In this document: positions 2,270 to 55,110 of the stretch, piece after piece | Numbering within the stretch: position 1 is the stretch's first letter | How the letters are laid out: the number at the start of each line of letters is the position of its first letter | Source of the DNA: an uncultured Polyangiaceae bacterium | Lineage (GTDB): Bacteria; Myxococcota_A; Polyangia; Polyangiales; Polyangiaceae | DNA length: 64,000 bases | Assembly (NCBI GenBank): GCA_964396375.1 | Contig: CAYNEY010000018.1 | Coordinates: 38,979 to 102,978 of the forward strand | Direction of reading: 5' to 3' | The notes under the pieces: generated by a model | Databases searched by the model: none | Seen by the model: the letters and a program-made list of their open reading frames with translations, nothing else | What the model was told of the DNA's origin: nothing | Translations under genes and position numbers: made by a program

Positions 2270-2378
2270 CCTGGTCGCCTCCCCCGCCTTTCCATGTGGG
2301 TAAATGTCCGCCGGGACCGGGATCCCCCGACGAAAGAACGCTGACTCTTGGCGGTCGATACCTTAGGATGGTCGGATC

Positions 2379-5525: not shown

Positions 5526-5534
5526 TGTGGATAA
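5526..5534. promoter_or_regulatory. consensus DnaA box (TGTGGATAA = TTATCCACA on the other strand) upstream of dnaA
   Basis: Perfect 9-mer match to the classical DnaA box, 45 nt upstream of the likely dnaA ATG at 5579. It is preceded by the 12-bp palindrome GGGGATATCCCC at 5509..5520. I found only one perfect box. Confidence 0.55.
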
Positions 5535-5578
5535 CTTGTGGTGCTGTTGGATTGGTTGAAGGAATTGGTTCGAACTCG

Positions 5579-7033: not shown

Positions 7034-7084
7034 CCTGAGGATGAATGGTGAGCACCGCGCGGAGGGCGGCCCCCAACTTGACCC

Positions 7085-8920: not shown

Positions 8921-8977
8921 CGGAGACCCCGAGGATTACACGACCAGGACCAGAAAAGACATGTGAGTGTTCGAGGA

Positions 8978-9610: not shown

Positions 9611-9624
9611 CGAGACCGCTCACC

Positions 9625-10713: not shown

Positions 10714-11177
10714 GGTGCCTCGGCGCAACACAAGCTCTCGAGGAGCTCCCGTGAGCGCGGCCCCGTGGACTCGATGCTGGCGCGCCGTGGCGAACAGCCC
10801 AGACGAACCAGAAGGGCGTCTCCGCCCAGCACCTGAGCATAGGGCTCACCCCACTCCACGATCACGAGTGCGCCTTCATCCCGTTGTTCGAGGAGCCCGA
10901 GTTCGGCAACCTCACGGGGATGAGCCAGGCGGTACAGATCGGCGTGCACGAGCCGCGGCTGGGTCGCGTACTCGAGGACGAGGCCGAAGGTGGGGCTCAC
11001 CACTCGGATCCGCGCCGAGAGCCCCAGAGCACGGGCAATACCGCGGGTGAGAAAAGTCTTTCCCGCGCCGAGCTCACCAGACAAAATCACGAGATCACCC
11101 GCCGTGAGCAGGGCGGCCAACCGTTGCCCGAGATGGAGAGTCGCACGACGGTTCTCGAGGGGGACCAAGAGGGTCAT
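10710..11177 (-). CDS. tsaE: tRNA threonylcarbamoyladenosine (t6A) biosynthesis ATPase TsaE
   Basis: P-loop SGELGAGKTFLTRGIARALG, then VVSPTFGLVLEY and HADLYRL, as in the YjeE/TsaE family. The start was moved to the internal ATG (MTLLVPLENR) because the longer track ORF overlaps the upstream gene. Confidence 0.85.
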   Translation of the reverse strand: MTLLVPLENRRATLHLGQRLAALLTAGDLVILSGELGAGKTFLTRGIARALGLSARIRVVSPTFGLVLEYATQPRLVHADLYRLAHPREVAELGLLEQRDEGALVIVEWGEPYAQVLGGDALLVRLGCSPRRASIESTGPRSRELLESLCCAEAP

Positions 11178-11184
11178 CGCCAAG

Positions 11185-26317: not shown

Positions 26318-27502
26318 ATGAACGACTCTCTTTTCCGGTCCCGCTTGGCCCAGCTGGAGGCCAGCTTCGCGCGCCTCACCACCCTCAGAAATCAGGTTGA
26401 CGAGAGCTTCACGAGTGGCTGGTACGAGCGCTACCAGCATCCCGTCCTCACCGCCGACCATGTACCCCTCGACTGGCGGTTTGATCTCGACGAGCGGACC
26501 AATCCATTGCTCCTCGAACGGTTGGGCATCAACGCCGTCTTCAACTCGGGAGCCTTCGAGCACCAGGGCAAGCTCTGCCTCATCTGCCGGGTCGAGGGCT
26601 TCGATCGTAAATCGTTCTTCGCTATTGCCGAGAGCGAATCTGGTGTCGATGGGTTCCGTTTCTGGCCGGAGCCGGTGGTCTTGCCCCAGACACCCGATCC
26701 AGACGTGAACGTGTACGACATGCGAGTCACGCGTCATGAAGACGGCTATGCCTACGGGCTATTCTGCACGGAGCGCCGCGATCCCAACGCCGCACCCCAC
26801 GATCTCTCGGCAGCCGTGGCGGCCTGTGGGATCGCGCGGACCCGGGATTTCGTCACCTGGGAGCGCCTCCCGGATCTGGTCTCGAAGAGTCCGCAGCAGC
26901 GCAATGTGGTTCTCCACCCAAGGTTCGTCTCGGGACGCTACGCACTCTACACCCGACCCCAGGACGGCTTCATCGAGACTGGCTCGGGTGGCGGCATCGC
27001 TTGGGCGCTGTGTGACGACATCACCCACGCGACCATCGATGAAGAACGGGTCATCGATCCGCGCCGCTACCACACCATCAATGAGGTAAAAAACGGGATG
27101 GGGGCCCCACCGCTCGAGACTGAGCTCGGCTGGCTCCACATCGCACACGGTGTTCGGAACACGGCCGCAGGCCTGCGCTACGTGCTGTACGCATTCTTGT
27201 GCGACAAGCAGCAACCGTGGCGAGTCACCCACCGACCCTCTGGATACTTCCTCGCGCCCCAGGGACCAGAGAGGATCGGCGACGTCTCCAATGTGGTGTT
27301 CTCGAATGGTGTGGTGGCACGCTCCGACGGCCATGTCTTCATCTACTACGGCTCGTCTGACACTCGCATGCACGTGGCCACCACCACCCTCGAGCGGCTG
27401 CTCGCCTACGTGACTCAAACCCCCGAAGATCCTGAATACTCACACTTGTGTGTGGCTCAGCGTCGGGCCCTGATCGAGAAGAACCGAAAGCTTGTCCGGT
27501 AG
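26318..27502 (+). CDS. GH130 glycoside phosphorylase (4-O-beta-D-mannosyl-D-glucose / beta-1,4-mannoside phosphorylase type)
   Basis: Collinear over its full length with my recollection of Bacteroides GH130 mannosylglucose phosphorylase: [113 protein letters not shown]. Confidence 0.88.
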
Positions 27503-29047: not shown

Positions 29048-30340
29048 TCAATCATGGACCGCCGGCCATGGCCCGATCGGACAAGTCGCCCTCGCTAGCC
29101 AGTCGTCGAGGAAGGCTGCCCGCGCGACCATGAACTCGTGCCTCGCCGCGATGGTATCTCGGTGGTCCTGGTCCGAGAAGGTCTTGTTCGGGTCCTCGGC
29201 AACCGCCTGCCCGACTTGCACGGCATAGCGTTCGAGTTCCGTCGACAAGAAGCGGACGTCGTAGGCCGCGCGAGCTGCCGCAAGTTCCGCCAAGAACCGG
29301 GCACACCAGGTTTCGTCTGAGAGCACCACCTCGAAGAGCCGTTCGCGGCCCCAATCGGGGTTCTGATAGAAGAAGGGATCTGCCTCCACGATCTCGGGTT
29401 GGATCCCCACGTCAACTTCTGTTCGCTCCGCGTCCATCACGCCCACACGCATGGCAAAGTCCATGTCGTAGGGGAGCCACGTGAAGCCACGAGTCGGATG
29501 ATCGTACAAGAAGTAGTTGATCTCGACCCCTGCCCAGTAGCTATCCGGATCCGGCAGCACGGCGGTGTGCGCCCAGATCTGGATAGCTTGCTCGAGATCC
29601 GTCAAATCTTCTATGCTCGGCAGATCGCGCGCCTCGGCGGCAGCGAAGAGCGCATCCCTCCGGCTCACGTCGCCGAGCGCCTCATTGGTGCGAAGCTCAA
29701 CGCCACCATCGTAGAGATTACCATCGGCCTCGGCGCCAGAAAAGTGCCGCTGTAGGTACTCCTTATCGATACGCTCGACATTGGCGTAGAGCCCATAGTA
29801 CTGACCATTGAGATACAGTCGTGCATTGTTCACGCAGGAGTACTGGGTCTGCGCGTGCTCCAGAAACGCGAACGCCAGCCGCTCTCCCAACACCGAAGGG
29901 TCGTACCAGGGTGCGTCAAGGACGATCTTCCGCAGTCCGTGGAAGCGCCCCTCGGGATCGAGCTCATTGAAGGAGATCAAGAACTGCTTCTTCTCGCAGC
30001 GCCAAGACCAGTTCCCCTTCAGCCGCACCATCACCTGCGCGGTCTCACCCTCGTAACTGAAGGTCGCTGGATGGTATACTTTGCCGCCATCGTTGGGGCC
30101 AAGATCGCACTCCGCTTCCATGGCCGTGAGCTCCGCGGGGTCGATCTCGAGTCGAAACTCCACCAGCCGTTGTGGGTCGTAGAGATCAGCGCACGGTTTG
30201 GGATAATCCGTTGGCTGGGTGGCTCCCCTTCCCCCTTGTGCCCCTTCGGTGGAGGAGTCACCCTGGCCGTTTTCCTCTGAACCGCAACCAGTCGCGAAGA
30301 CGAGCCATCCGACCACCAGGTATCCACGACGGGGCTTCAT
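29048..30340 (-). CDS. CotH-family (atypical kinase fold) lipoprotein
   Basis: Lipobox LVFATGC. The sequence is collinear with my recollection of B. subtilis CotH blocks: KKQFLISFNE, LRKIVLDAPWYDPSVLGERLAFAFL, LNGQYYGLYANVERIDKEYLQRHF, NYFLYDHP...WLPYDMDFA. Confidence 0.8.
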   Translation of the reverse strand: MKPRRGYLVVGWLVFATGCGSEENGQGDSSTEGAQGGRGATQPTDYPKPCADLYDPQRLVEFRLEIDPAELTAMEAECDLGPNDGGKVYHPATFSYEGETAQVMVRLKGNWSWRCEKKQFLISFNELDPEGRFHGLRKIVLDAPWYDPSVLGERLAFAFLEHAQTQYSCVNNARLYLNGQYYGLYANVERIDKEYLQRHFSGAEADGNLYDGGVELRTNEALGDVSRRDALFAAAEARDLPSIEDLTDLEQAIQIWAHTAVLPDPDSYWAGVEINYFLYDHPTRGFTWLPYDMDFAMRVGVMDAERTEVDVGIQPEIVEADPFFYQNPDWGRERLFEVVLSDETWCARFLAELAAARAAYDVRFLSTELERYAVQVGQAVAEDPNKTFSDQDHRDTIAARHEFMVARAAFLDDWLARATCPIGPWPAVHD

Positions 30341-37379: not shown

Positions 37380-39485
37380 ATGGAACGGCCCCTCTATTTC
37401 GATCCTGAGCGCTCCTGCGAAGAGCGGATCACGGCGCTTCTATCGGCAATGACACTGGATGAAAAGATCGCCTGTTTGGGGACCAATCCGAGCGTCCCCC
37501 GCCTCGGGGTGGTCGGTGCGCCCCACGTCGAAGGGCTCCATGGGCTGACACTCGGAGGTCCCGGCGAATGGGGTCGCGATCAACCCGTGTGCACCACCAC
37601 CTTTCCCCAAGCCATCGGCCTGGCTGAGAGTTGGGATCCCGAGCTACTGGAGCGCGTCGCCGCTGTCGAGGCGTACGAGACCCGCTACCTGTTTCAATCT
37701 CCGCGCTACCGCCGCGGGGGCTTGGTGGTGCGCGCCCCAAACGCCGATCTGGGGCGTGACCCGCGCTGGGGACGCACCGAGGAGTGTTACGGCGAAGATC
37801 CCTACTTGGTCTCGACGCTGGTGGTCGCCTTCGTGCGAGGACTTCAGGGCCCGGATCCGCGAGTGTGGCTCACCGCTTCCCTCATGAAGCATTTTCTGGC
37901 CAACAGCAACGAGAACACTCGCGAGCGTTCCTCCTCGAACTTCGACGAGCAGCTGTTCTACGAATACTACGCGCGCCCCTTCATCCACGGCGTGGTCAAA
38001 GGTGGTTCACGCGCTTTCATGGCCGCCTACAACAAGTTCAACCAGATCCCGTGCGTGGTGCACCCGGTGCTGGAGGAGGTCATGGAGCACAAACTGGGGC
38101 AAAATGGCATCATCTGTACCGACGGTGGAGCCTACCAGCTCTTGGTGACAGCCCACGAGTATGTTCCCGATCTCCCCACGGCTGCAGCCGCCATAATCCG
38201 TGCCGGCGTCTCACAGTTTCTGGACAAGTATGAGGAGGGCGTGCGGGAGGCACTCGCGCGAGGGTACCTCACCGAGGCTGATGTCGACGCGGTGCTGGAG
38301 AAGACTTTTCGAGTCATGCTCCGACTGGGGATGTGGGATCCGAACGATACCAATCCCTACGCGGCCATCGGGGGGGAGGATGAACTCGAGCCTTGGCTCC
38401 GCGCAGAGCACCAAGCGCTCGCTCGAGAAGCCACCGCCCGTTCCGTGGTCCTGCTCAAGAACGACGACCAACTCCTGCCACTTGTGCCGGAGCGGCTGAC
38501 TCGGTTGGCCGTGATCGGCCCACTCGCAGACTGCGTGTTGGGCGACTGGTATGGGGGAACCCCCCCCTACACCGTATCACCCTTCCAGGGAATCCTGGAG
38601 CGCTTCGGGGCGTCGCTGGAGGTGGAGTGCGTCAGCTCGAACGATGTGAGTCGGGCGGTGATGGCCGCCAGGAACGCGGATGTAGCGCTGGTCTGCGTTG
38701 GGAATCACCCAACGGGCGATGCGGGTTGGGCGCAGGTCACCCGCCCAAGCTACGGCAAAGAAGCAGTGGATCGCGAGAGCCTCACCCTGGAAGATGAGAG
38801 GTTGCTGCGCCGAGTGCTGCACGCCAACCCGAAGACGGTCCTGGTACTCATCTCGAGTTTTCCTTACGCCATCGGCTGGGCCCAAGAGCACGTGCCGGCG
38901 ATCGTGCACTTGACGCACGCCAGCCAGGAGCTGGGACGTGGTCTCGCTGACGTGCTGGCCGGAGCCGTCAACCCTGCGGGACGTCTGGTCCAGACCTGGC
39001 CCCGCTCCCTCGATCAGCTACCGGATCTACTCGACTACGATCTCCGTCACGGACACACCTACCTCTTCTCCCGACATGAACCGCTGTACTGCTTCGGCCA
39101 TGGTCTCTCATACTCGAGCTTCGAGTACGGGTGCCTGGTGTTCCCGGAGCAGGTGTCGGGGGCCGAAGAGTTCACGGTGGTGGTACCGGTCAGAAACGAG
39201 TCGGAGCGAGATGGCGAGGAAGTGGTTCAGCTCTATCTGGAGTTCCACGATTCCTTGCTGGAAAGGCCCAAGCGCGCGCTTGCCGCCTTTGAGCGCGTGA
39301 TGATCCCGGCGGGGGCGACCCGCGCTGTCCGCTTGGTGGTGCGCCCGGAGTCACTGTCGAGCTACTCCAACGAAGCCCGCGATTTCGTCCTAGAGCCGGG
39401 CCGCGTACAACTCCACGTTGGCAGTAGCCTGACCGATATCCGGAGTACGGGATTGCTCAGACTCGACCCCAGTAGTCCAAACTGA
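37380..39485 (+). CDS. GH3 glycoside hydrolase (beta-glucosidase / beta-xylosidase / alpha-L-arabinofuranosidase type), no signal peptide
   Basis: N-terminus LTLDEKIACLG, then GRDPRWGRTEECYGEDPYL and KHFLANSNE. The nucleotide... rather, the catalytic nucleophile region is IICTDGGA. The C-terminal Fn3-like domain carries VVQLYL. Confidence 0.88.
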   Translation: MERPLYFDPERSCEERITALLSAMTLDEKIACLGTNPSVPRLGVVGAPHVEGLHGLTLGGPGEWGRDQPVCTTTFPQAIGLAESWDPELLERVAAVEAYETRYLFQSPRYRRGGLVVRAPNADLGRDPRWGRTEECYGEDPYLVSTLVVAFVRGLQGPDPRVWLTASLMKHFLANSNENTRERSSSNFDEQLFYEYYARPFIHGVVKGGSRAFMAAYNKFNQIPCVVHPVLEEVMEHKLGQNGIICTDGGAYQLLVTAHEYVPDLPTAAAAIIRAGVSQFLDKYEEGVREALARGYLTEADVDAVLEKTFRVMLRLGMWDPNDTNPYAAIGGEDELEPWLRAEHQALAREATARSVVLLKNDDQLLPLVPERLTRLAVIGPLADCVLGDWYGGTPPYTVSPFQGILERFGASLEVECVSSNDVSRAVMAARNADVALVCVGNHPTGDAGWAQVTRPSYGKEAVDRESLTLEDERLLRRVLHANPKTVLVLISSFPYAIGWAQEHVPAIVHLTHASQELGRGLADVLAGAVNPAGRLVQTWPRSLDQLPDLLDYDLRHGHTYLFSRHEPLYCFGHGLSYSSFEYGCLVFPEQVSGAEEFTVVVPVRNESERDGEEVVQLYLEFHDSLLERPKRALAAFERVMIPAGATRAVRLVVRPESLSSYSNEARDFVLEPGRVQLHVGSSLTDIRSTGLLRLDPSSPN

Positions 39486-43285: not shown

Positions 43286-44470
43286 ATGAGCAACCAGGTA
43301 CCAATCACGACCGAAAGACTGAGGCACCGTGCCGAACGGGCGTTCTGGGACCACTTCGGCAGGTCGCCAAGCATCTCGGTGGTGGCTCCAGGCCGCGTGA
43401 ACCTGATCGGCGAGCACACCGACTACAACCAGGGCTTCGTACTACCGATGGCGATCGAGCGGAGCCTTTTGCTGGTGGCAAGAGAAAGCCCGGCTCGGCC
43501 CGCGAGGATCCACGTGTTCGGTGCAGATCTGGCAAAATCGGTCGAATTGTCCTCGACCGAGCCGCTGGCCCGCGTGCCCGGCTGCTTCGCCAATTACCTG
43601 CGTGGTGTCCTGGCAGGCTTCATCAGCCGTGGCTTCCCCTTCCCTTCGCTCGATATCGCGATTGTCTCCGACATCCCCCTCGGCGGCGGGCTTTCGAGCA
43701 GCGCGGCCCTGGAGGTTGCGACTGCGACCCTGCTCGAAGCCGTGTTCGGGATCACCCTTGGGCTTACCGAGAAGGCCCTGCTGTGCCAGCGCGCCGAGCA
43801 CGAGTTTGCGGGTGTGCCCTGTGGGTTGATGGACCAGCTTGCCTGCGTCTTCGGCGAGGTGGATACCGCCCTGCTGATCGACTGCCTCGACAATCAGATC
43901 ACCCCGATCCACCTCGTCGACCCCGAGCTCAGCGTGCTGGTCGCCAACAGCAGCGTCAAACACTCCCTCGCCGACGGAGAGTACGAAAAACGACGTCGGG
44001 AGTGCCGTGCCGCCGCAGACGCGCTCGAGGTGAAGAGCCTCCGCCATGCCCGTCTCGAGCAGCTCGAATCGGCGCTGGGCGATGAGCCGACGCTGACCCG
44101 TCGCGCCCGCCATGTCATCACCGAGAACCAACGCACCAAGGAATTTGCCGAAGCACTCGCGCACCATGACCTAGTGACCGCCGGCAGACTGATGGGAGAG
44201 AGCCACGCCTCGCTCCGCGACGATTTCCAGGTGAGCTGTGCGGAGCTCGATGTCCTGGTCGATCTCACAAGCCAGCTCGGCCCCGAGCGCGGAGTGTACG
44301 GCTCACGGTTGACCGGTGGCGGCTTTGGCGGTTCAACGGTCAGCCTTATCGCGACCGCAGAACTCCAAACCATCGTGCCCGAACTCCTCGAGGGATACCA
44401 GGCCCGCACCGGACGTGTCGCCCAGCTCTTCGTCTCACGCCCGGCTCAAGGATGTCGCCGCCTCGCCTGA
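43286..44470 (+). CDS. galK: galactokinase
   Basis: GalK signature GRVNLIGEHTDYNQGFVLPMAI, GHMP ATP loop PLGGGLSSSAALEV, and C-terminal GSRLTGGGFGGS. Confidence 0.95.
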   Translation: MSNQVPITTERLRHRAERAFWDHFGRSPSISVVAPGRVNLIGEHTDYNQGFVLPMAIERSLLLVARESPARPARIHVFGADLAKSVELSSTEPLARVPGCFANYLRGVLAGFISRGFPFPSLDIAIVSDIPLGGGLSSSAALEVATATLLEAVFGITLGLTEKALLCQRAEHEFAGVPCGLMDQLACVFGEVDTALLIDCLDNQITPIHLVDPELSVLVANSSVKHSLADGEYEKRRRECRAAADALEVKSLRHARLEQLESALGDEPTLTRRARHVITENQRTKEFAEALAHHDLVTAGRLMGESHASLRDDFQVSCAELDVLVDLTSQLGPERGVYGSRLTGGGFGGSTVSLIATAELQTIVPELLEGYQARTGRVAQLFVSRPAQGCRRLA

Positions 44471-44494: not shown

Positions 44495-45520
44495 ATGTCT
44501 GACTTCGATCCGGAACTCATCCCTCATCGCCGGTACAACCCGCTGCTTGGCACCACCGTGCTGGTCTCTCCACACCGTACCGCGCGTCCTTGGCTGGGAC
44601 AGACGGAAACGACCGAGCGTCCCACGCTGCCCCATCATGATCCAGACTGCTACTTGTGCCCCAGCAACTCGCGGGCGGCAGGCGCACGCAACCCCGAGTA
44701 CACGAACACCTACGTGTTCACGAACGACTACAGCGCTCTGGTGCCCGACGCACCCACGCTTCTGCCCTCGGAAGATCCACTCTTCGTATCCACCTCCGTC
44801 CGGGGAACCTGCCGCGTGATCTGTTACTCCCCGCGCCACGATCTGACGCTCGCCGACATGGAGGTGACTGCCATCACCTCCGTCGTCGACACCTGGGCCA
44901 ACGAGAGCGCCGCTCTCGGACAAACCTACCCATCGGTGCAGATCTTTGAGAACAAGGGCAGCGTGATGGGATGCTCGAATCCCCACCCACATGGGCAGAT
45001 CTGGGCCTCTTCCAGCTTGCCTCATGATCTTCGGTGCGAGGATGAGAACCAGCGCGCGTATCTCGCAGCACATGGACGGCCCATGCTCCTCGACGTGGTC
45101 GCTCGCGAACTCGAGACCGGGGTGCGCGTGGTGTGTCAGAACCGGGATTACCTGGTCGTGGTGCCCTACTGGGCAGTCTGGCCTTTCGAAACCTTGCTCC
45201 TCCCAAAGTTTGCCGTGCCGCGCATTACGCTGCTTTCGCCAGCACAGCGCAGCACGCTCGCGCACATCTTGAAACGTTTACTCAGGACCTACGACCGCCT
45301 CTTTTCGACCTCCTTCCCCTACTCCTTCGGCTGGCATGGTGCTCCCTTCGTGCCGGGAAACTTCGAGCACTTCCAGCTTCATGCCCACTTCTTTCCGCCA
45401 CTCCTACGCTCGGCCAGCGTAAGGAAGTTCATGGTCGGTTATGAACTCTTGGCCGAGCCGCAGCGCGACCTCACCCCCGAGCAAGCGGCGGCTCGGCTAC
45501 GAAGCTTGGTCGACGACTAG
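44495..45520 (+). CDS. galT: galactose-1-phosphate uridylyltransferase (class I)
   Basis: HRRYNPLLGTTVLVSPHRTARPW, DPDCYLCP, YVFTNDYSAL, and active site NPHPHGQIWA. Collinear with my recollection of E. coli GalT. Confidence 0.95.
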   Translation: MSDFDPELIPHRRYNPLLGTTVLVSPHRTARPWLGQTETTERPTLPHHDPDCYLCPSNSRAAGARNPEYTNTYVFTNDYSALVPDAPTLLPSEDPLFVSTSVRGTCRVICYSPRHDLTLADMEVTAITSVVDTWANESAALGQTYPSVQIFENKGSVMGCSNPHPHGQIWASSSLPHDLRCEDENQRAYLAAHGRPMLLDVVARELETGVRVVCQNRDYLVVVPYWAVWPFETLLLPKFAVPRITLLSPAQRSTLAHILKRLLRTYDRLFSTSFPYSFGWHGAPFVPGNFEHFQLHAHFFPPLLRSASVRKFMVGYELLAEPQRDLTPEQAAARLRSLVDD

Positions 45521-46506
45521 CTACCATAACCCGTAGGGTGCTCTCGGAACCAGCAAAAGGCCGTCTCCACGATCGCGTCGAGCGACGTGAAGCGGGGACG
45601 CCAGGTCGATTCTGCCATGATCCGTTCCGGACATGCGTAAAGCTGCGCCGGATCTCCGGGCCTCCGGGCGACCATCTCGATCGCGATGGGGCGCCCGGTC
45701 ACGCGACGCACCGACTCGATCACCTCGCGCACGCTGTAGCCACGTCCGATCCCGAGATTGTAGTGGCGCGCGTCACCATCCACGAGAGATTCCATCACCG
45801 CCACGTGCGCGCGCGCCAGGTCTTCAACGTGGATGTAGTCACGAATGCAGGTACCGTCCGTGGTCGGGTAGTCATCTCCGAACACTTTCACTTGCGGAAT
45901 GCGTCCCAGCGCAGCCAGCAAGACCAAAGGTATGAGATGGGTTTCGGGGCGGTGGTCCTCGCCAAGCGAACCGTCCGACGCGCACCCGGCGACGTTGAAG
46001 TATCGCAGCGCCGCATAGCCAAACTCGGGCCAGCTCCGGGCCAGATCGGCGAGCATGCCTTCTATGAACAGCTTCGAACGCCCGTAGGGATTGATCGGTC
46101 GCTGTGGCTCAACCTCGCGAATCGGCACCATGCTCGGCTCACCGTAGGTAGCGCAGGTCGAGCTGAAAACCAGGCGCTGCACGTTCACGCGCTTCATCGC
46201 CAGAAGCAAGCTGCAGGTGCCCGAGGTATTGTTGTCGTAATAGAGGAGCGGCAGCTCGACCGACTCACCCACATACGCCAATGCCGCGAAGTGCATCACG
46301 CATTCGATGTGGTTCTGCTCGAGGACCTGGGCGACTGCGTCAGACTCGCGCAGATCGACCTTGGCGAACACAGCCCCTGGAAGGAGCGCTGCGGCATGTC
46401 CTCGAGAGAGGTTGTCGAGCACCGTGACTACATGCCCCGCATCGCGCAGGCAGCGCGCCGCGTGGCTCCCGATGTACCCAGCACCACCCGTCACCAAGAC
46501 ACGCAT
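45517..46506 (-). CDS. galE: UDP-hexose (or UDP-pentose) 4-epimerase, GalE family
   Basis: MRVLVTGGAGYIGSH Rossmann motif, FSSTCATYG, and the YGRSK catalytic YxxxK. Confidence 0.88.
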   Translation of the reverse strand: MRVLVTGGAGYIGSHAARCLRDAGHVVTVLDNLSRGHAAALLPGAVFAKVDLRESDAVAQVLEQNHIECVMHFAALAYVGESVELPLLYYDNNTSGTCSLLLAMKRVNVQRLVFSSTCATYGEPSMVPIREVEPQRPINPYGRSKLFIEGMLADLARSWPEFGYAALRYFNVAGCASDGSLGEDHRPETHLIPLVLLAALGRIPQVKVFGDDYPTTDGTCIRDYIHVEDLARAHVAVMESLVDGDARHYNLGIGRGYSVREVIESVRRVTGRPIAIEMVARRPGDPAQLYACPERIMAESTWRPRFTSLDAIVETAFCWFREHPTGYGS

Positions 46507-46521
46507 TGCAACTCCTCTCGT

Positions 46522-47979
46522 TCACACCGATTCATGGAGGGTCAACGTACCATAATCAACCGCGCCCGGGCTGGTCCCGGTGAAAACCCGCGGCATGCCG
46601 TGAAGTCGTGCTTCGCATCTGCGGCAGAACTCCTCTATGCTCGGTTTGGGCTCCCGACGAACGAGGATCGCCACGGTGCCGCCGCTCCCACCACCGGTGA
46701 TCTTCGCACCGTACCAACCCGACGCTGGACCGAGCGCACGCACTTCTTCCACCAACACGTCCGTGGCAGCCGAGCCAAGACCCACCCTGGTGTAGCTGTG
46801 ATGCGATTGAAACATCAGCTCCCCAAGCAGCACTCGTGCTTCTTCGGTGTCAGCGTGTGGGAGTAGCGCAGCTGAGAGTCGGACTCGGTGATCCTCGAAG
46901 ATGGGATGCTCAGTACAGGCGCGGATCGCGTAGCTCCGCTCGTGCTCGATGTGCGTCATGCTGTCGCACGACCCCCCAAACCGAGCCAGGAAGTCCTCCC
47001 CACGCAAACATTCGGGGAGCAGTGACGCAAAGCGCTCTCGATAGAGCGAGACTGGGATCCGTGTAAGATATCCTCCGTAAATGGGATCGCTGATCTGGAT
47101 GCGCCCGGCACCCAGCGCTGTGACTGCCAGCCCACAGGCTCGAGCGATGATGGTGTAGCCCATGAAGGTCGCAGCTCTGACGCTGCCGTAATCGCTACCG
47201 CCCACTGCATGACGCACCCCTGAGTCGATGCCAAACACCACCAACTCCGGTGGCAGCCCCACCGACCCTTCGATCTCTGCCGGCTGACACCTCAGGCGCA
47301 AGAGCTTCCCCGCCTTTCCACACGCGGCAGTCATCTGGTCCATGATCCCCGAGGGCGCGCCAGCCACCAGATTCTCGGCGCGTTGGGCCAGAGCTGCGAG
47401 TTCGGGACCCTCGATGCGCTCTCCCGCACAGGCGAAGAGCGCCATCGCCGTAGCCACCTCGAGCGCGGCCGACGAACTTACCCCCTTGCCCTCGGGGACC
47501 TCGGAGCAGATCACCACGCGGAGCCCCGAGAGTCCGTGAAGTCGGCCGAGTGCCCGCGCCGTGACCAGCACTCCGAGCACGTAGGCGGCGAAATGGTGCT
47601 CCGGGTGCTCGGCAAAGGTGCGACGCGCGCGCGCTTCATCGGCGAGCAGTCCGTCCGAGAGCTCGGCGCTTGGCATCGTGAAGCGGCGGGTCTGCTCGGA
47701 GCGCTCACCCAGGCTCACCACCGAGAGCGTAGCCTCCGAGGTTCGTTGGACGAGCGCCCAGGTGGCCTCGCCGAGCGGCAGCTGAAGCACGACCGAGCCC
47801 GAGTAGTCTGCGATCCCTCCCATCAGATCCAGGCGCCCAGGCGCTCGGGCCAGAAAGGCAGGTCGGTTGGGGTCGACCGAGATGGCATCCCGGCTCATGC
47901 GCTCCTCGAGCAGCCGCAGTTCCGCGAGCGCGAAGCGCTGATGGGGCGCGAGATCGAGCCGCTCGAGGAGCGTGGGCAT
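46522..47979 (-). CDS. GHMP sugar-1-kinase resembling the kinase domain of plant L-arabinokinase (ARA1 type), distinct from GalK
   Basis: APGRLDLMGGIADYSGSVVLQLPL, ATP loop VPEGKGVSSSAALEVA, GAPSGIMDQMT, YGAKITGGGSGGTV, and C-terminal FTGTSPGAVDYG. From memory, these blocks are collinear with the Arabidopsis ARA1 C-terminal domain. Confidence 0.82.
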   Translation of the reverse strand: MPTLLERLDLAPHQRFALAELRLLEERMSRDAISVDPNRPAFLARAPGRLDLMGGIADYSGSVVLQLPLGEATWALVQRTSEATLSVVSLGERSEQTRRFTMPSAELSDGLLADEARARRTFAEHPEHHFAAYVLGVLVTARALGRLHGLSGLRVVICSEVPEGKGVSSSAALEVATAMALFACAGERIEGPELAALAQRAENLVAGAPSGIMDQMTAACGKAGKLLRLRCQPAEIEGSVGLPPELVVFGIDSGVRHAVGGSDYGSVRAATFMGYTIIARACGLAVTALGAGRIQISDPIYGGYLTRIPVSLYRERFASLLPECLRGEDFLARFGGSCDSMTHIEHERSYAIRACTEHPIFEDHRVRLSAALLPHADTEEARVLLGELMFQSHHSYTRVGLGSAATDVLVEEVRALGPASGWYGAKITGGGSGGTVAILVRREPKPSIEEFCRRCEARLHGMPRVFTGTSPGAVDYGTLTLHESV

Positions 47980-47988
47980 GCTCGTCTC

Positions 47989-49017
47989 TCAGCTCCCCCG
48001 GGACTTGTAGTGCTCGAGTGGTACCGCGCGCAGCTCAGCCGCGGTGACCTCCGGAGCGGTGTCGCTGATGAAGTTGCCCCCACCGATCTCCGGACCCGCC
48101 AGGAACTTCAGCAGGTTGGGCTTCCTGAGCGGCGGATGGAGCTCGATGTGGAAGTGGAAGAAGTCGTGCGGTCCTTGATTGGTGGGCGCCTGGTGCAGGG
48201 CCATCACGTAGGGGAAAGGCATCTTCCAGAGGTTGTCGAAACGGATCAGCGTGGAGCGCAGCACCTCGGCGAGATCCACCAGCTCCTGGTCGGGCAGCGC
48301 GGCCAAGCTGGGATAGCTGCGCCGTGGCGCAACAAAGGTCTCGTAGGAGTAGCGGGCGAAGAAAGGCACGAAGGAGACCGCGGAGGCGTTCTGATCCAGG
48401 ATGCGTGTGGATGCCTCGTACTCCGCCGCAAGGACGTCCGCGAACAGAATGCGACCGGTCTGCTCGAAGTGCCGTCGCGCGGCGGCCACCTCGGTCTCGA
48501 TGGTCTTCATCACGAAATTGGTGGCGTAGATCTGGCAGTGGGGGTGCGGATTCGACACGCCGACCACCTCACCGTTGTTCTCGAACACCAGCACGTGCTT
48601 GATTTCGGGATCGCGGGCCAACATGCGGTACTCGTCCTGCCAAGCGCGGAGCAGAACCACCACACTCTCGAGCGGGAGTTCGGCCAGCCTCTGGTCGTGA
48701 CGTGGGTGGTAGCAGAGGACGCGGGCACGGCCGTACGCCGGACGCACCCGAAAGAGCCCCTCCTCGGCGGCGTTCGAAGGAGCGTGACTCCCAACGCAGG
48801 GATGATCGTTGTCGAAGGCGAAAACCCCGGAATAATCCGGGTTCTCGGCTCCGCTCACCCGACGGTTGCCCGGGCAGAGATAGCAGTCGGCGCTGTACCT
48901 CGGCTTCGGCAGGTCGCCGATCGACTCTGCCTGACCGGACCAGGGCCGCCCCTGTCGGTGCGCCGCCACCACCACCCATTCCTCACGCAGCGGGTGCCAG
49001 CGTTCTTCCCAAACCAT
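47989..49017 (-). CDS. second GalT-family hexose-1-phosphate uridylyltransferase paralogue
   Basis: [30 protein letters not shown], and active site [10 protein letters not shown]. Clearly more divergent than the galT at 44495. Confidence 0.85.
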
Positions 49018-49074
49018 GTTGCTTGCTCCCTGTCTCGGGCGCTCGACGGCCCCACTTCGGTCAGACGCACGAAC

Positions 49075-49123
49075 AGCCGGGAATCCTGGACGAAGGGCTC
49101 CCGGCTGTCACGATTTTTCTCGG
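49075..49123. terminator. 10-bp perfect hairpin downstream of the CBM-like lipoprotein gene
   Basis: ACAGCCGGGA-(16 nt)-TCCCGGCTGT. The T-run (cacgaTTTTTct) lies on the plus-strand side, while the minus-strand side continues ttcgtgcgtct. Confidence 0.4.
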
Positions 49124-49134
49124 CGTGTTGGCGC

Positions 49135-50052
49135 TCAGGGAACCAAGCGGATGTCGTCGATGGTGATGTCGACCGGATAGGGAGGATAGGAGTCGTCCGA
49201 GGTCCACTCCCAGTGCAGCATCCACTGGATGCCGGTTATCTCGCTCACAACCGGGGTCACGCTCGGTGCCCCATCGATCATGTCGGCGAAGCTGACCGTC
49301 ACCTCGGTCGGGGTGCCTCCCACCGTGTCCAGGACGAGCGTGGAGGCCGCGCAGTTTTCTGCGGTGCAGGTGGCGCTGTTGGTGATGCAGGTCGGATTGG
49401 CCGCATCGGCGCTCGGCGCGCTGTTCGAGGCGGAGTTGATGGACATGGTGAGGGGTCCGGGCAGTGTCTCCGCCGACGAGATGGTAAAGGCGATCCCGGA
49501 ATATCCGGTCAGATCGAGCACGCTGCAGGGCCCAAACCAGAGACCGAAGCCCGACCAGGTGCCAGCGGTACCGGTGATGTGCCAGTTGCCACCGGTAACA
49601 TCAGTGGTGAGCGGATAGGCGGGCTGCGTGTCCAGACAGGCATCAAGAGCCGGATAGACATAGGTGCCGCCATAGAGGTTGTTCCACTGCGTCTCGGGAT
49701 TGGAATCGGAGAGGAAGACCCCGCCCTCCGCGATGCCCGAGAAATCGGTGACGTCGGCACCGATCGGCACGGTCGGTGTGCAGCTGGTGGGCGCTTCGCC
49801 CTGACACGGCGCACAGGGATCCGCCGTGGACCCCCCCTGCCCGGTCGCGGTCGCCCCCGAGTCGCCATTGCCACCGGCACCATCCGTCGAGGTGCTGCCT
49901 CCTGCATCGGTGGCGGGCGCGCCGCCCGCAGCATCATCACCGTCATCGGAGTTGGAACTGCATCCAAGCCACAGAGTCGCAGCCAACAGCCCCGCGAGCG
50001 TGGCCAGCGGTGCGGCGAAAAGGAAACTAGTTTTGTGGGAGCGGATCGACAT
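49135..50052 (-). CDS. lipoprotein with a carbohydrate-binding-module-like beta-sandwich domain
   Basis: Lipobox ATLWLGCSS, then an Asp/Gly/Ser/Thr-rich linker. The later domain has CBM-like features (GGNWHITGTAGTWSGFGLWF, LTGYSGIAFTI, ITGIQWMLHWEW...ITIDDIRLVP). A good GGAGG RBS is present. Confidence 0.7.
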   Translation of the reverse strand: MSIRSHKTSFLFAAPLATLAGLLAATLWLGCSSNSDDGDDAAGGAPATDAGGSTSTDGAGGNGDSGATATGQGGSTADPCAPCQGEAPTSCTPTVPIGADVTDFSGIAEGGVFLSDSNPETQWNNLYGGTYVYPALDACLDTQPAYPLTTDVTGGNWHITGTAGTWSGFGLWFGPCSVLDLTGYSGIAFTISSAETLPGPLTMSINSASNSAPSADAANPTCITNSATCTAENCAASTLVLDTVGGTPTEVTVSFADMIDGAPSVTPVVSEITGIQWMLHWEWTSDDSYPPYPVDITIDDIRLVP

Positions 50053-51284: not shown

Positions 51285-53633
51285 ATGCGTTTCGGTGATG
51301 GCGCTTGGCGCATGTTAGACGACGTAACCCCCACCTATTTGGTCCGCGTCGATGCGGTGGAAGAGGAGCCGCGAGCCTTGGTGCTCCACGTGAGCAACCG
51401 CTTCGAGGAGGCGCGCTGGGCCACACTCGAGGGGCACATGTTCACGGTACGCATCACCTCTCCGATGTGTGATGTGTTTCGAATCGAGATTTCACACCAC
51501 CTGGGCCGCAGACGCACGGGCCCCCAGTTTCGACTGGAGACGACTCCTCAACCGCTCACCATCACCCAACGAGACGATTCGCTGGAGCTGGTCTCTGGAA
51601 GAACTCGTCTGATCGTGGATCGTAAGCCGTATCGGTTGCGCTTCGTCGACGCCAAGACCGGCGAGAAGATCACCGAGAGCGCACCCAAGGCGGCTGGCTT
51701 GATGGAGAAATCGGGACACGGACACTTCGTGCGTGATCAGCTCACCATGGGGATAGGCGAGCTGATCTATGGCCTGGGTGAACGCTTCGCCGCGCTGTGC
51801 CGCAATGGTCAGGCCGTGGACATGTGGAACTCGGACTGTGGCACTTGCTCGGACAAGGGCTACAAGGACGTTCCCTTCTTCCTCTCCAGCCGCGGGTACG
51901 GCGTACTGGTCAACTCCTCGGGGCGGGTCTCCTTCGAGATCGGCACGGAACAGGTCACACGCAGCCAATTCGCGGTCCCCGGGGAGGAGTTGGATTACCT
52001 CTTCATCTACGGCCCCGAGCCCAAGCGTGTGCTCTCGACGCTGGGGGCGCTCTCGGGGCGGCCTGCCATGCCGCCAGCCTGGTCGTTTGGACTCTGGCTC
52101 ACCACCTCATTTACGACCGACTACGACGAGCCCACGGTGATGAGCTTCCTTGACGGGATGCGGGAACGCGAGCTTCCGTTGCATGTCTTTCACTTCGACT
52201 GCTTCTGGATGAAGGGACACCACTGGTGCAACTTCGAGTGGGATCCGGATGTCTTCCCCGATCCGGAGGCGATGCTGAGTCGCCTCCACCAGAGAAAGAT
52301 CCGCGTTTGCGTGTGGATCAACCCCTACATCGGTGAGCGCTCCCACCTGTTCGCTGAGGGACGAGACCACGGTTACCTCCTCATGCAACCAAACGGCAAT
52401 GTGTACCAGCGCGATCGTTGGCAGGCTGGAATGGCCTACGTTGATTTCACGAATCCGGACGCCACCCGTTGGTTCCAGGAGAAGCTGCGAAAGCTCCTCC
52501 GCATGGGGGTGGATTGCTTCAAGACCGACTTCGGCGAAGAAATCCCCACTGATGTGGTGTACTCGGACGGTTCAGACCCTGAGCGCATGCACAACTACTA
52601 CACCTACCTCTACAACAAGGCGGTCTTCGACCTCTTGCTGGAGGAGCGCGGCTCAGGGGAGGCGTTGGTATTCGCGCGCTCGGCCACTGCGACATGCCAA
52701 ATGTTCCCGGTTCACTGGGGTGGGGATTGCTACGGAACCTACGAGTCGATGGCCGAGAGCCTTCGCGGGGGGCTCTCCCTCACCATGAGCGGGTTTGCCT
52801 TCTGGAGCCATGACATCGGTGGTTTCGAGAGCAAGGCGTCACCCGGTGTCTACAAGCGCTGGGTGGCCTTCGGGCTCTTGTCATCGCACAGCCGCTTGCA
52901 CGGGAGCACCTCCTACCGCGTGCCATGGCTCTACGACGATGAGGCGGTGGAGGTGCTTCGGAAGTTCACCCAGCTCAAGTGTCGATTGATGCCGTATTTG
53001 ATGCGCGTCGCGCGCGAGGGTCACGAGACCAACGTGCCGATGATGCGCGCCATGTGGCTGGAGTTCCCAGAGGATCTGGCTTGCCGAAGCCTCGACCGTC
53101 AGTACATGCTCGGCCCTGACCTCCTGGTGGCCCCGGTCTTCGACGATCGCCGCGCCGAGTACTTTCTGCCCGAGGGCACCTGGGTTCACCTTTTGTCTGG
53201 CGAGACCCGATGCGGTGGACACTTCGTCAAGGAGGAACTGGACTTCTTCAGCCTGCCGCTGTTCATCCGCGAAGGCGGCGTGATCGCCATGGGTTCGAAC
53301 CTGGCTGAGGTCGACTACCCCTATGCGTCGCAGGTGCGCCTGGTGTTCGGCGCACGCCTCCCCATCGCCAAGCAGCAGGTCGTGATCATGGACGCGCGAG
53401 GTCAGGTGGCCGCCCGCTTCGAGGTGATCGATGATGACGGGACGCTGGTGATTCAGAGTCTGGAGGCACGGTCGGACTTCGAGCTACACCTCCCGGCGAT
53501 CCCCAATCTGCGGGAGCTCGAAGGCGGCGAGCTAGCAGTCGCCGATCTGGGCGCGCCAGGCGTGTTGATCCGCGCGACGGCGCCCGAGGTGCGGCTGAGG
53601 TGGCGCGACGGCGCGAGACCGGCCTCCTTCTGA
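51285..53633 (+). CDS. yicI: GH31 alpha-xylosidase (YicI-like)
   Basis: Long collinear identity with my recollection of E. coli YicI: GLGERFAAL, RPAMPPAWSFGLWLTTSFTTDYDE, LPLHVFHFDCFWMK, CVWINPYI, GVDCFKTDFGEEIPTDV, FPVHWGGDC, YESMAESLRGGLSL, FWSHDIGGFE, YKRWVAFGLLSSHSRLHGS.SYRVPW. Confidence 0.9.
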   Translation: MRFGDGAWRMLDDVTPTYLVRVDAVEEEPRALVLHVSNRFEEARWATLEGHMFTVRITSPMCDVFRIEISHHLGRRRTGPQFRLETTPQPLTITQRDDSLELVSGRTRLIVDRKPYRLRFVDAKTGEKITESAPKAAGLMEKSGHGHFVRDQLTMGIGELIYGLGERFAALCRNGQAVDMWNSDCGTCSDKGYKDVPFFLSSRGYGVLVNSSGRVSFEIGTEQVTRSQFAVPGEELDYLFIYGPEPKRVLSTLGALSGRPAMPPAWSFGLWLTTSFTTDYDEPTVMSFLDGMRERELPLHVFHFDCFWMKGHHWCNFEWDPDVFPDPEAMLSRLHQRKIRVCVWINPYIGERSHLFAEGRDHGYLLMQPNGNVYQRDRWQAGMAYVDFTNPDATRWFQEKLRKLLRMGVDCFKTDFGEEIPTDVVYSDGSDPERMHNYYTYLYNKAVFDLLLEERGSGEALVFARSATATCQMFPVHWGGDCYGTYESMAESLRGGLSLTMSGFAFWSHDIGGFESKASPGVYKRWVAFGLLSSHSRLHGSTSYRVPWLYDDEAVEVLRKFTQLKCRLMPYLMRVAREGHETNVPMMRAMWLEFPEDLACRSLDRQYMLGPDLLVAPVFDDRRAEYFLPEGTWVHLLSGETRCGGHFVKEELDFFSLPLFIREGGVIAMGSNLAEVDYPYASQVRLVFGARLPIAKQQVVIMDARGQVAARFEVIDDDGTLVIQSLEARSDFELHLPAIPNLRELEGGELAVADLGAPGVLIRATAPEVRLRWRDGARPASF

Positions 53634-53742
53634 ACGGAAGCTCCCCCATCTCCGCAGGAAATTGGCTCTGGTTGGCCTCGAGAGGCCGCCTGCGCCAAAG
53701 ACGCTCGACCTCTTCCATGCCTTGGGCTATCCCGGTCGCCTG

Positions 53743-55110
53743 ATGAAAACGACCCTCGTCGGTGCCCTAGGACTTGGACGCGCTCGTCTCTTTGGTGCGC
53801 TCCTCTCGTGTCTCGTGCCACTGGCCTGTGGAGGTGGCGCGCAGCAAGCTGAGGCGAACTGGCCCGTGAACTCGAAGAAGTGGTACGATCGCGCGGCACA
53901 GAGCCTCATGGTGGGCGACGTCGACGACGCCGAATTGGCGGTGGTACAAGCCGAGAGGGTCGATCCGATCCCCACCCGCCCCGAGATTCGGCTGCTCGCT
54001 GCTAAGGTGGCGTTGGCCCGCCTCGACTTCGAGGCCGCCATCAAGCACACCGAAGGCCTTACTTCATCGGAAGCGCTGAGCACCCGCGGGCGAGCCCTGT
54101 GGTACGCGGATCGCATCTCGGAAGCGGCCGATGTCCTGGAGAAACTGGTGGCCAATCCGGAGGTACGCGACCCATGGGCGGTTGACATCGCCAAGCTGGC
54201 GCGACGCGGGATTGGACGACAACCGTTCACGGTGAGCGGCGGCCTCTTGGCGGTCTCGGAGATGCCGCGGGTTGGGCGCTCTCTGCTTGTCCCGGTCGAG
54301 TTGGACGGGGAACCAGCCCTGGCCATGATCGCGACTGGTGTAAGCGAGACAGTGGTTGACTCGAGTAGTAGCGCCGAACCCAAGTGGGTCAGCCTGCGTT
54401 TCGGTGAGCGAGTGGTGGTGAAGGATGTCCCCGCTCTCACCAAGGATCTCTCGAGCTACTCTCGGCAGCTCAATGCACCACTCAAGGTTCTGCTTGGCAT
54501 CAATCTGCTACGGCGACTCAACCCGACCTTCGATCTCTTGGGTGGGCAGTTCGTAGTGCGCACCTTCGAGCCGCCTCAGGCGGTGGGCGCAACCGTGGTG
54601 CCCGTCAACTACATCCGAGGCGGTGGGATGTTGGTGCGCGTCGCGCTCGGCACTCAGACCAAGAAGACACTCGGGTCGGCGTTGGTCGACACCGCGATGG
54701 ACTTCCCGCTTGCGCTCGACGAGGCCGGGTGGAACAAAGCGGGCAAGCGCACCTCCACGCTGACGGCGCTTCCGGGAGCGAAGGGGATGTCTCACGGCAC
54801 CGTCCCCATGATCGCCCTCGGCGCCCTCGAGATCCCCGAGGTGCCAGCCATCTTCGGTGCACCGATCGCCGAAATCGAGAAGCCACTTGGTATCGATCTC
54901 GACGGCATCATTGGCTCGGGCTTCCTCGCGCCGTTCCGGGTAACACTGATCGACCGCGGACGGACGGCGCTTCTAGAGCCGGCGCCCATGGCTGAGAACA
55001 TGGCTGGACCAGCGCCCGCTCCCAGCGAGAGCACGGAGACTTCCCCCTCGGCTCCACCTCCGAATCCGGCGCCTTCGGTCCCGACCCCCGCAGCCAACGC
55101 CCCGCGCTGA
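53743..55110 (+). CDS. lipoprotein with a TPR-like N-terminus and two retropepsin-like (clan AA) lobes
   Basis: The ATG at 53743 gives MKTTLVGAL...SCLVPLACGG with a lipobox. The first lobe has LLVPVELDGEPALAMIATGVSETVVD, with ATG in place of DTG. The second lobe has ALVDTAMDFPLAL. The tail is Pro/Ala-rich. Confidence 0.6.
   Translation: MKTTLVGALGLGRARLFGALLSCLVPLACGGGAQQAEANWPVNSKKWYDRAAQSLMVGDVDDAELAVVQAERVDPIPTRPEIRLLAAKVALARLDFEAAIKHTEGLTSSEALSTRGRALWYADRISEAADVLEKLVANPEVRDPWAVDIAKLARRGIGRQPFTVSGGLLAVSEMPRVGRSLLVPVELDGEPALAMIATGVSETVVDSSSSAEPKWVSLRFGERVVVKDVPALTKDLSSYSRQLNAPLKVLLGINLLRRLNPTFDLLGGQFVVRTFEPPQAVGATVVPVNYIRGGGMLVRVALGTQTKKTLGSALVDTAMDFPLALDEAGWNKAGKRTSTLTALPGAKGMSHGTVPMIALGALEIPEVPAIFGAPIAEIEKPLGIDLDGIIGSGFLAPFRVTLIDRGRTALLEPAPMAENMAGPAPAPSESTETSPSAPPPNPAPSVPTPAANAPR

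Follow-up and report, generated by a model that had tools for sequence, protein, structure and literature searches.

L-Arabinose is among the most abundant plant-derived sugars in soil, and the textbook bacterial routes for its use are the AraBAD and oxidative pathways. Galactose is handled by the Leloir pathway (GalM, GalK, GalT and GalE), in which the glucose 1-phosphate (Glc-1-P) that is formed is rescued by phosphoglucomutase (PGM). In plants, L-arabinose is salvaged by way of L-arabinose 1-phosphate (L-Ara-1-P) and UDP-L-arabinose (UDP-L-Ara), and the plant L-arabinokinase ARA1 has a two-domain architecture (PMC12281597). In the bacterium Solitalea canadensis, a promiscuous GalK and a UTP-dependent uridyltransferase carry out a 'UDP-xylose salvage' (PMC11267548). 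The subject of this article is a minus-strand trio of genes (45517-49017) that encodes a GalT-like uridylyltransferase, an ARA1-type sugar-1-kinase and a GalE-family 4-epimerase, and that lies in a 64,000-nucleotide stretch of DNA, here called the window, from an uncultured Polyangiaceae bacterium of the Myxococcota (assembly GCA_964396375.1, contig CAYNEY010000018.1, positions 38,979 to 102,978). A preliminary description of the window had read the trio as a second Leloir-like module for a sugar other than galactose and had favoured L-arabinose. We assign a probability of roughly 0.58 to the reading in which the trio forms the core of a Leloir-type route that has been adapted to a pentose, L-arabinose. 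The evidence comprises the family to which the kinase belongs, a remodelled sugar pocket in the transferase and the genes that accompany relatives of the trio in other genomes.

An ARA1-type kinase in a convergent gene trio

The trio begins with the gene for the GalT-like uridylyltransferase (47989-49017, minus strand, 342 amino acids), followed by those for the GHMP sugar-1-kinase (46522-47979, minus strand, 485 amino acids) and the GalE-family UDP-sugar 4-epimerase (45517-46506, minus strand, 329 amino acids), with intergenic gaps of only 9 and 15 bp. This minus-strand run converges on a canonical galK-galT pair outside the module, and the stop codons of the GalE gene and galT overlap by 4 bp (45517-45520). 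Both plus-strand genes pass equivalog cutoffs: the galactokinase GalK (43286-44470) scores 298 against a cutoff of 227 for TIGR00131, and GalT (44495-45520) scores 534 against a cutoff of 448 for PRK11720 and has the KFMVGYE loop. The gene coordinates and the convergent layout given in the preliminary description proved exact, and every motif quoted there, including HPHCQ, is found in the translations; those of the trio carry FTGTSPGAVDYG, and the window GalK carries GRVNLIGEHTDYNQGF and GRVNLIGEHTDY. The paralogue pairs within the window are distant from one another, the GalT-like protein being 34% identical to GalT and the kinase 30% identical to GalK.

The kinase contains the Pfam GHMP N- and C-terminal domains and a weak GalK signature, and it fails every galactokinase equivalog in NCBIfam, the best being TIGR00131 at 107 against a cutoff of 227. 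The proposal that it is collinear with plant ARA1 and does not match GalK was borne out by BLASTP, in which the L-arabinokinase of Lactuca sativa (P0271) was matched at 39% identity, 296 bits and an E-value of 1e-94, with residues 5-481 of the query aligned collinearly to residues 465-986 of the plant protein. The corresponding scores were 113 bits for the window GalK, 83 for human GALK1 and 43 for GALK2. A phmmer search of 1.84 billion cluster representatives with the kinase returned 612 representatives at an E-value of 1e-30 or lower, many of them 900-1070 amino acids long and matched at their C-termini, and one of these long proteins, P0170 (314 bits), shares its 90% cluster with named plant L-arabinokinases. 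Many homologues of the kinase also carry the JGI name L-arabinokinase. The comparison with GalK, GALK2 and ARA1 that had been suggested as a check thus places the kinase with the plant L-arabinokinases, at 296-314 bits. Its nearest relatives are from members of the Polyangia and Myxococcales.

The residues that set this family apart emerged when 70 bacterial members were aligned with GalKs and with two-domain proteins from plants and elsewhere. The bacterial members share a mean identity of 49% with plant ARA1 kinase domains and 30% with GalKs. The GalK motif GRVNLIGEHTDY is replaced by GRLD(V/L)MGGIADYSG in every ARA1-type sequence (70 of 70 bacterial and 3 of 3 plant), so that the Glu-His-Thr of GEHTDY becomes Gly-Ile-Ala in all of these proteins; the window kinase shares the GGIADYSG sequence, and the ARA1-type signature was present in all 120 of its top database matches. 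Arg28, Asp37, Asp174 and Tyr223 (E. coli GalK numbering) are retained. The Glu-His pair of GalK helps to hold galactose, and its change to Gly-Ile may mean a loss of contacts with the C6 hydroxyl, although no open paper was found that gives the galactose hydroxyls bound by Glu43 and His44. An AlphaFold2 (AF2) model of the kinase (pLDDT 80) has a GalK-type fold, with GALK1 and GALK2 as the top Foldseek matches (TM 0.8). By these sequence comparisons the minus-strand kinase is of the ARA1 type and not a GalK, and it is proposed to be an L-arabinose 1-kinase.

The N-terminal glycosyltransferase-like domain of the plant enzymes is missing from the window kinase and from the bacterial members, and was found only in the long eukaryote-type matches. 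Two-domain arabinokinases of this eukaryote type (P0169, P0170, P0218, P0225, P0243, P0150, P0157 and P0204) group together, and their kinase domains are approximately 40-54% identical to the bacterial single-domain kinases, the same as the bacterial kinases are to each other. Such similarity across the groups is a hint that the gene was long ago transferred between bacteria and the plant/algal lineage, and the close match of the plant ARA1 kinase domain to its bacterial counterparts is relevant to the origin of the plant enzyme.

A recently solved protein, designated 'AbGHMP' (PDB 9ULX/9ULY, 498 amino acids), matches the kinase at an E-value of 3e-128 over residues 35-482, and the existence of these structures indicates that someone is working on this kinase. 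AbGHMP is 82% identical to the kinase of one locus (L015) and 74% identical to a Blastocatellia kinase; its closest likeness in sequence is to the kinases of Blastocatellia, and it is therefore of Acidobacteriota origin. No open-access paper on AbGHMP was found, only the molecule name; 9ULX was not among the matches of the fold search, the library of which ends at 2026-04-08, and was therefore released later. The L015 locus (1-11344), whose kinase is the most like AbGHMP, has no adjoining GalT-like gene. Its kinase closes a rhamnose-utilisation cluster with a GH106 rhamnosidase, an aldolase/SDR fusion, an isomerase-like TIM barrel, an FGGY kinase and a DUF7790 protein.

A remodelled uridylyltransferase and its epimerase partner

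The preliminary description had called the first protein of the trio a divergent member of the GalT family, and this holds. Both the N- and C-terminal Pfam GalP_UDP_transf domains are present; the protein passes the permissive TIGR00209 model (255 against a cutoff of 102) and falls below the stricter PRK11720 (316 against 448). Orthologues from other phyla whose genes are linked to the kinase share 55-69% identity with it. When 50 kinase-linked transferases were aligned with E. coli GalT and the window GalT, 49 of them were informative for the sugar-1-phosphate loop. In E. coli numbering, this clade retains Arg28, Arg31, Asn153, Gly159, Ser161, His164-Pro-His166, Gln168, Lys311 and Glu317 together with the zinc ligands Cys52, Cys55, His115 and His164, and all of these residues are present in the GalT-like protein of the window.

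The loop that faces the sugar 1-phosphate is different. Canonical enzymes read KFMVGYE(M/L)LAE(T/P)-QRDLT in this loop, with KFMVGYELLAEP-QRDLT as the canonical reading, and the GalT-like clade reads K(Y/F)LAGPE(I/V)GGG(N/S)F(L/I)SDT, where one residue is inserted and a GGG turn is present. In human GALT, the Glc-1-P site is lined by eight residues (PMC5081055). Among the pocket positions considered (Lys311, Phe312, Val314, Tyr316, Glu317, Gln323, Asn153 and Gln168), five of the eight are kept, and Val314Ala, Tyr316Pro and Gln323Leu/Ile occur in 49 of 49 clade members. The clade loop signature was present in 119 of 120 top database matches and the canonical loop in none of the 120, yet all of these matches bear the public label of an ordinary GalT. 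As judged from these alignments, the GalT-like protein belongs to a distinct, pocket-remodelled GalT clade, in which the catalytic and zinc-binding residues are kept and the pocket loop is changed clade-wide, so the chemistry is conserved and the acceptor site is not. The polar-to-hydrophobic changes in the pocket would fit a substrate without a C6 hydroxymethyl group, and the proposed role of the protein is that of a beta-L-arabinose-1-phosphate : UDP-pentose (or UDP-glucose) uridylyltransferase.

The third gene product is a GalE-family 4-epimerase, as had been described: it passes the TIGR01179 galE model (419 against a cutoff of 262) and has the catalytic Thr124, Tyr149 and Lys153. The gatekeeper position is occupied by Leu where E. 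coli GalE has Tyr299, which only suggests a roomier pocket. We propose that the enzyme interconverts UDP-L-Ara and UDP-xylose (UDP-Xyl). A second GalE match was not found in the window, and the single GalE, situated between the converging gene sets, probably serves galK-galT as well.

Relatives of the trio and a proposed pentose route

The wider distribution of the system was explored by scanning one genome per GTDB species, which yielded relatives of the kinase in at least 565 species genomes. The best 80 loci are distributed among Acidobacteriota (47), Chloroflexota (15, including the cultured Dictyobacter, Ktedonobacter and Ktedonospora, and also a Thermobaculum metagenome-assembled genome), Planctomycetota (8), Myxococcota (3), Gemmatimonadota (2) and others (5). 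Neighbouring genes were counted in the 43 of these loci with flanks of 5 kb or more on each side. In 39 of the 43 loci a GalT-like gene is found on the strand of the kinase and no more than 3 kb away from it, and the same is true of a GalE gene in 21. The genes for transferase and kinase stay together as a conserved unit, in many cases along with GalE. Conservation across Myxococcota genomes had been suggested as a check on the trio, and the unit extends well beyond that phylum to Acidobacteriota, Chloroflexota, Planctomycetota, Gemmatimonadota and others. Between the transferase and kinase genes, 31 of the 43 loci carry an additional gene for a protein of 340-380 amino acids, here called phosphatase X; the GalT-kinase-GalE form without it is rare (1 of 43 loci, plus L056). 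The window holds only this minimal three-gene core, corresponding to the first three steps of the pathway proposed below.

The neighbours that recur in these loci are catabolic. A GH51 or GH127 L-arabinofuranosidase occurs within 10 kb in 16 of the 43 loci; xylA or xylB is present in 15, whereas canonical galK occurs in one. Several of these neighbours were identified with curated models: xylose isomerase (TIGR02631, 590 against a cutoff of 447), xylulokinase (TIGR01312, 567 against 380) and the mutarotase galM (NF008277, 327 against 240), with GH51 and GH127 recognized by their Pfam domains. Also recurrent are a sugar transporter of the Peripla_BP_4 / ABC / BPD_transp_2 type, a TonB-dependent receptor (TBDR) and DeoR regulators, and some loci add an SSF transporter, GH43, GH42 or GH2. 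A typical Pyrinomonadaceae operon reads TBDR-TPR-GH51-GalTlike-phosphatase-kinase-GalE-SBP-ATPase-GalM-permease-XylB-XylA-GH127-GH51. A tblastn search with E. coli AraA, AraB and AraD gave no match in the window or in any of the loci. Among the families that recur beside the kinase in the 80 loci there is no glycosyltransferase family and no UDP-sugar pyrophosphorylase, with no search aimed at the latter enzyme having been made. The L-arabinose route favoured in the preliminary description is thus supported, with its substrates inferred, and far better by the GH51 and GH127 genes of the relatives than by the GH3 and GH31 genes of the window.

This context, together with the sequence of the kinase, also bears on plain paralogy, in which the trio would be a second, divergent galactose set (GalK2-GalT2-GalE) redundant with the adjacent galK-galT. 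All three proteins do belong to the GalK, GalT and GalE superfamilies, and the public annotation is galactokinase and galactose-1-phosphate uridylyltransferase. The kinase, however, fails all galK equivalogs and groups with L-arabinokinases, the transferase pocket is remodelled clade-wide, arabinofuranosidases and xylAB recur in loci where galK is nearly absent, and a phosphatase acting on Glc-1-P would be wasteful. Plain galactose paralogy is very improbable and was rejected on the basis of the kinase family assignment and the gene context.

Phosphatase X has invariant DPIDGTRGLMYQKR and HPYD motifs and carries a DPIDGTRG motif. It lies just above the cutoff of Pfam Inositol_P (PF00459; 35 against 27), gives nearly no signal against the PDB by sequence (IMPase at an E-value of 0.09), and its homologues, which number in the thousands, go by the names 'FBPase/IMPase family' or 'hypothetical'. 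Modelling with AF2 gave a structure of moderate confidence (pLDDT 67, pTM 0.75) that resembles class I fructose-1,6-bisphosphatases over its full length in Foldseek (probability 1.0, TM approximately 0.6), and the protein is accordingly predicted to be a sugar-phosphatase of the FBPase/IMPase superfamily. Gene fusions connect components of the module. A phosphatase::kinase fusion of 767 amino acids (P0164; L093 7001-9304) was found in two independent assemblies, where a GalT-like gene lies immediately upstream of it and GH51 is close by. P0180 is another full-length phosphatase::kinase fusion, and P0209 (L094 7001-9259) is a GalT-like::kinase fusion; all three align over their full length. A further candidate for a phosphatase::kinase fusion, P0155 (824 amino acids, named inositol monophosphatase family protein by NCBI), was dropped, as the Arg/Ala-rich junk after residue 246 makes it probably a frameshift artefact. 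In two loci without phosphatase X, a ComB-type phosphatase gene (2-phosphosulfolactate phosphatase family, PF04029) lies directly upstream of the GalT-like gene (L049 4142-4873 and L085 1888-2619) and may represent non-orthologous displacement of the phosphatase step.

A pathway that would account for these genes can be outlined as follows. L-Arabinose would be released by GH51 and GH127 enzymes and anomerised by the mutarotase, after which the ARA1-type kinase would phosphorylate beta-L-arabinopyranose at C1 to give beta-L-Ara-1-P. The GalT-like enzyme, acting through a His-Pro-His uridylyl-enzyme, would convert L-Ara-1-P and UDP-Xyl to UDP-L-Ara and alpha-D-xylose 1-phosphate (Xyl-1-P), with UDP-glucose as an alternative UMP donor to prime the cycle, and GalE would regenerate the donor by C4 epimerisation of UDP-L-Ara to UDP-Xyl. 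The net effect of the core would be the conversion of L-Ara-1-P to D-Xyl-1-P, the pentose analogue of the conversion of Gal-1-P to Glc-1-P. Phosphatase X would then hydrolyse Xyl-1-P to xylose, and xylose isomerase and xylulokinase would deliver xylulose 5-phosphate to the pentose-phosphate pathway; overall, L-arabinose and ATP would yield D-xylose, ADP and Pi, followed by the standard xylose route. A PGM-like step would be impossible for a pentopyranose 1-phosphate because it has no exocyclic hydroxyl, which would leave hydrolysis as the only simple exit. The presence of a phosphatase gene inside the operon, at times even fused to another of its genes, would then be understandable, as would the fact that xylA and xylB rather than AraA, AraB and AraD lie downstream. 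The broader form of this reading, in which a widespread catabolic 'pentose Leloir cycle' (kinase, GalT and GalE leading to D-Xyl-1-P, and a phosphatase yielding D-xylose for XylA/XylB) takes the place of AraBAD in many Acidobacteriota, Chloroflexota, Planctomycetota and Myxococcota, with the window holding a minimal core, has about an even chance of being correct.

Several observations weigh against an arabinose-catabolic role. The family memberships, catalytic residues, clade-wide pocket changes, synteny and fusions are direct observations, and all substrate assignments are drawn from plant orthology and gene context. Residue analysis of GalE gave no pentose-specific signature. With representatives of the other loci as tblastn queries, phosphatase X, xylA, xylB, galM, GH51 and GH127 were not found in the 64-kb window, so the catabolic ending is not shown for this genome. 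In four Planctomycetota loci (L029, L040, L046 and L056), phosphatase X is replaced by a PGM/PMM-like mutase of approximately 500 amino acids encoded directly downstream of the kinase (68-74% mutual identity), which the model leaves unexplained; a mutase acting on a pentopyranose 1-phosphate makes no obvious sense, and UDP-glucose may be the donor there or the pathway may be a different variant. The route would also cost one extra ATP per arabinose relative to AraBAD. Finally, xylA and xylB could serve xylose freed from arabinoxylan, and some loci do contain GH43 and a weak GH10-like gene.

Some of these points suit a plant-like anabolic salvage, in which L-arabinose would be converted to UDP-L-Ara (and to UDP-Xyl via GalE) for use by glycosyltransferases, the GalT-like protein would replace a UDP-sugar pyrophosphorylase and there would be no catabolic flux. 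The closest relative of known function, plant ARA1, acts in salvage (PMC12281597), neither the phosphatase nor xylAB is present in the window, so that the products could be UDP-pentoses, and the Planctomycetota mutase variants would fit a UDP-glucose donor with recycling of Glc-1-P. Set against this, the recurrent neighbours are catabolic (arabinofuranosidases, the TonB-dependent receptor, ABC and SSF transporters, mutarotase, xylA/xylB and DeoR), glycosyltransferases are not among them, and the embedded and sometimes fused sugar-phosphatase would have no role. Salvage as a general explanation is unlikely. Pure salvage may apply to this genome, and it fits poorly with the catabolic contexts of the relatives; here, Xyl-1-P might be drained by an unlinked phosphatase, or the module might mainly make UDP-pentoses, and the data are compatible with both.

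The identity of the sugar can be questioned separately. The likeness to ARA1 might mislead on specificity, and the substrate might be another galacto-configured sugar or sugar acid (D-fucose, D-galacturonate or L-fucose) or D-xylose. Anomeric kinases of the GHMP family shift specificity by few substitutions, the bacterial members are only approximately 49% identical to plant ARA1, contexts with rhamnose genes (L015), GH42, GH2 and GH43 suggest mixed pectin and arabinogalactan sugars, and the Solitalea GalK phosphorylates xylose promiscuously (PMC11267548). On the other side, the commonest glycosidases beside the module are specific for L-arabinofuranosides (GH51 and GH127), the kinase signature is the same in plants and bacteria, and the combination of a 4-epimerase with xylA/xylB is biochemically sensible only for the L-arabinose/D-xylose pair. 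A different sugar is therefore quite improbable, more so than salvage, and L-arabinose is the favoured candidate for the substrate.

Genomic setting and comparison with known systems

The window is ordinary chromosome, containing dnaA, dnaK, groEL, fba and coaD. Two glycosidase genes near the trio agree with their earlier description. The first, on the plus strand at 51285-53633, encodes a YicI-type GH31 alpha-xylosidase (NF007940, 1101 against a cutoff of 606; 830 bits against E. coli YicI structures). The second (37380-39485, plus strand) encodes a GH3 exo-glycosidase with Pfam GH3 N- and C-terminal domains and an Fn3-like domain; its nearest solved structures are beta-xylosidases (280 bits), and it falls below the cutoff of all NCBIfam xylosidase and arabinosidase models. 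These neighbours may or may not be functionally linked to the trio, and all that the alpha-xylosidase close to it establishes is that glycans containing xylose are processed here as well. Directly after the alpha-xylosidase gene is an open reading frame (ORF) of 482 amino acids (53662-55110, plus strand) with no match in Pfam or NCBIfam. More glycan-related content is found in a GH130 mannoside-phosphorylase-like gene (26318-27502, plus strand) and a CotH kinase-family gene (29048-30340, minus strand), neither with any apparent relation to the trio as far as can be told.

Directly upstream of the trio, a lipoprotein-like ORF of 305 amino acids (49135-50052, minus strand) carries an LGC lipobox and a linker rich in Gly, Ala and Thr; it gave no match in Pfam or NCBIfam. 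The gap between it and the start of the GalT-like gene (49018-49134) contains an inverted repeat, GCCGGGA...TCCCGGC (approximately 49076-49105), which may act as a terminator and so set the trio apart as a separate transcription unit. A scan for promoters and terminators around the trio gave counts no higher than in shuffled sequence. Elsewhere in the window, a P-type ATPase of 1532 amino acids (18837-23435, minus strand) has approximately 740 residues before its E1-E2 ATPase domain that match no Pfam family. The dnaA gene (5525-7033, plus strand) adjoins dnaK (7085-8920, minus strand), and because of this adjacency the region (5525-8920) may be near the replication origin; a coarse GC-skew profile of the window revealed no clear switch.

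The enzyme families and the logic of the Leloir pathway are already known. What would be new, with substrates inferred, is the way in which they are combined, the use of a pentose, the phosphatase dedicated to the route and the outlet through xylose; no open-access paper was found that describes a bacterial kinase-GalT-GalE route for arabinose. If the proposal is true, Leloir enzymes re-tooled for a pentose would provide a further route for L-arabinose in at least hundreds of species of dominant, poorly cultured soil phyla. Thousands of entries labelled galactokinase, galactose-1-phosphate uridylyltransferase or FBPase/IMPase-family would be corrected, a large orphan phosphatase family would gain a function, and enzymes would become available for producing L-Ara-1-P, UDP-L-Ara and UDP-Xyl.

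The module shares with the Leloir galactose pathway its protein superfamilies, an anomeric kinase, UMP exchange via a His-Pro-His uridylyl-enzyme and a donor-regenerating 4-epimerase, and related loci also contain a mutarotase. It departs from that pathway in its ARA1-type kinase and in the three transferase pocket residues that differ clade-wide, and, in the proposed scheme, a dedicated phosphatase would hydrolyse the sugar 1-phosphate in place of isomerisation by PGM, with xylA/xylB as the sink. Two further systems invite comparison. The lacto-N-biose/galacto-N-biose (LNB/GNB) pathway of Bifidobacterium, reportedly described by Nishimoto and Kitaoka in 2007, is said to employ NahK, the GalT-type LnpC and the GalE-type LnpD as a second Leloir-like set for a sugar other than galactose. 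Unlike the module, it acts on N-acetylhexosamines, uses an APH-type rather than a GHMP kinase, includes the phosphorylase LnpA and has no phosphatase. In plant ascorbate synthesis, VTC2, a GDP-L-galactose phosphorylase of the GalT/HIT family, is paired with VTC4, an L-Gal-1-P phosphatase of the IMPase family, so that, as in the module, a GalT/HIT enzyme that releases a sugar 1-phosphate is coupled to a phosphatase of the IMPase superfamily. The nucleotide (GDP), the sugar and the purpose are different, and no kinase is involved; because the bacterial phosphatase finds IMPase in the PDB only at the marginal E-value given above, the relation is one of analogy, and orthology is not demonstrated.

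The plant L-arabinose salvage pathway (ARA1/ARA2, UDP-sugar pyrophosphorylase and UDP-xylose 4-epimerases) is close to the module in its kinase domain (39-54% identity, with the same GGIADYSG) and in its intermediates, which are the same as those proposed here. It differs in that the bacterial kinases are without the N-terminal glycosyltransferase-like domain, a GalT-type transferase replaces the UTP-dependent pyrophosphorylase and the gene context is catabolic. The Solitalea route is likewise a bacterial path from an anomeric kinase to a UDP-pentose, but it relies on ordinary enzymes that happen to be promiscuous, draws on UTP instead of exchanging UMP and starts from D-xylose with no dedicated conserved operon, whereas the loci described here would represent a set of Leloir-type enzymes adapted to L-arabinose.

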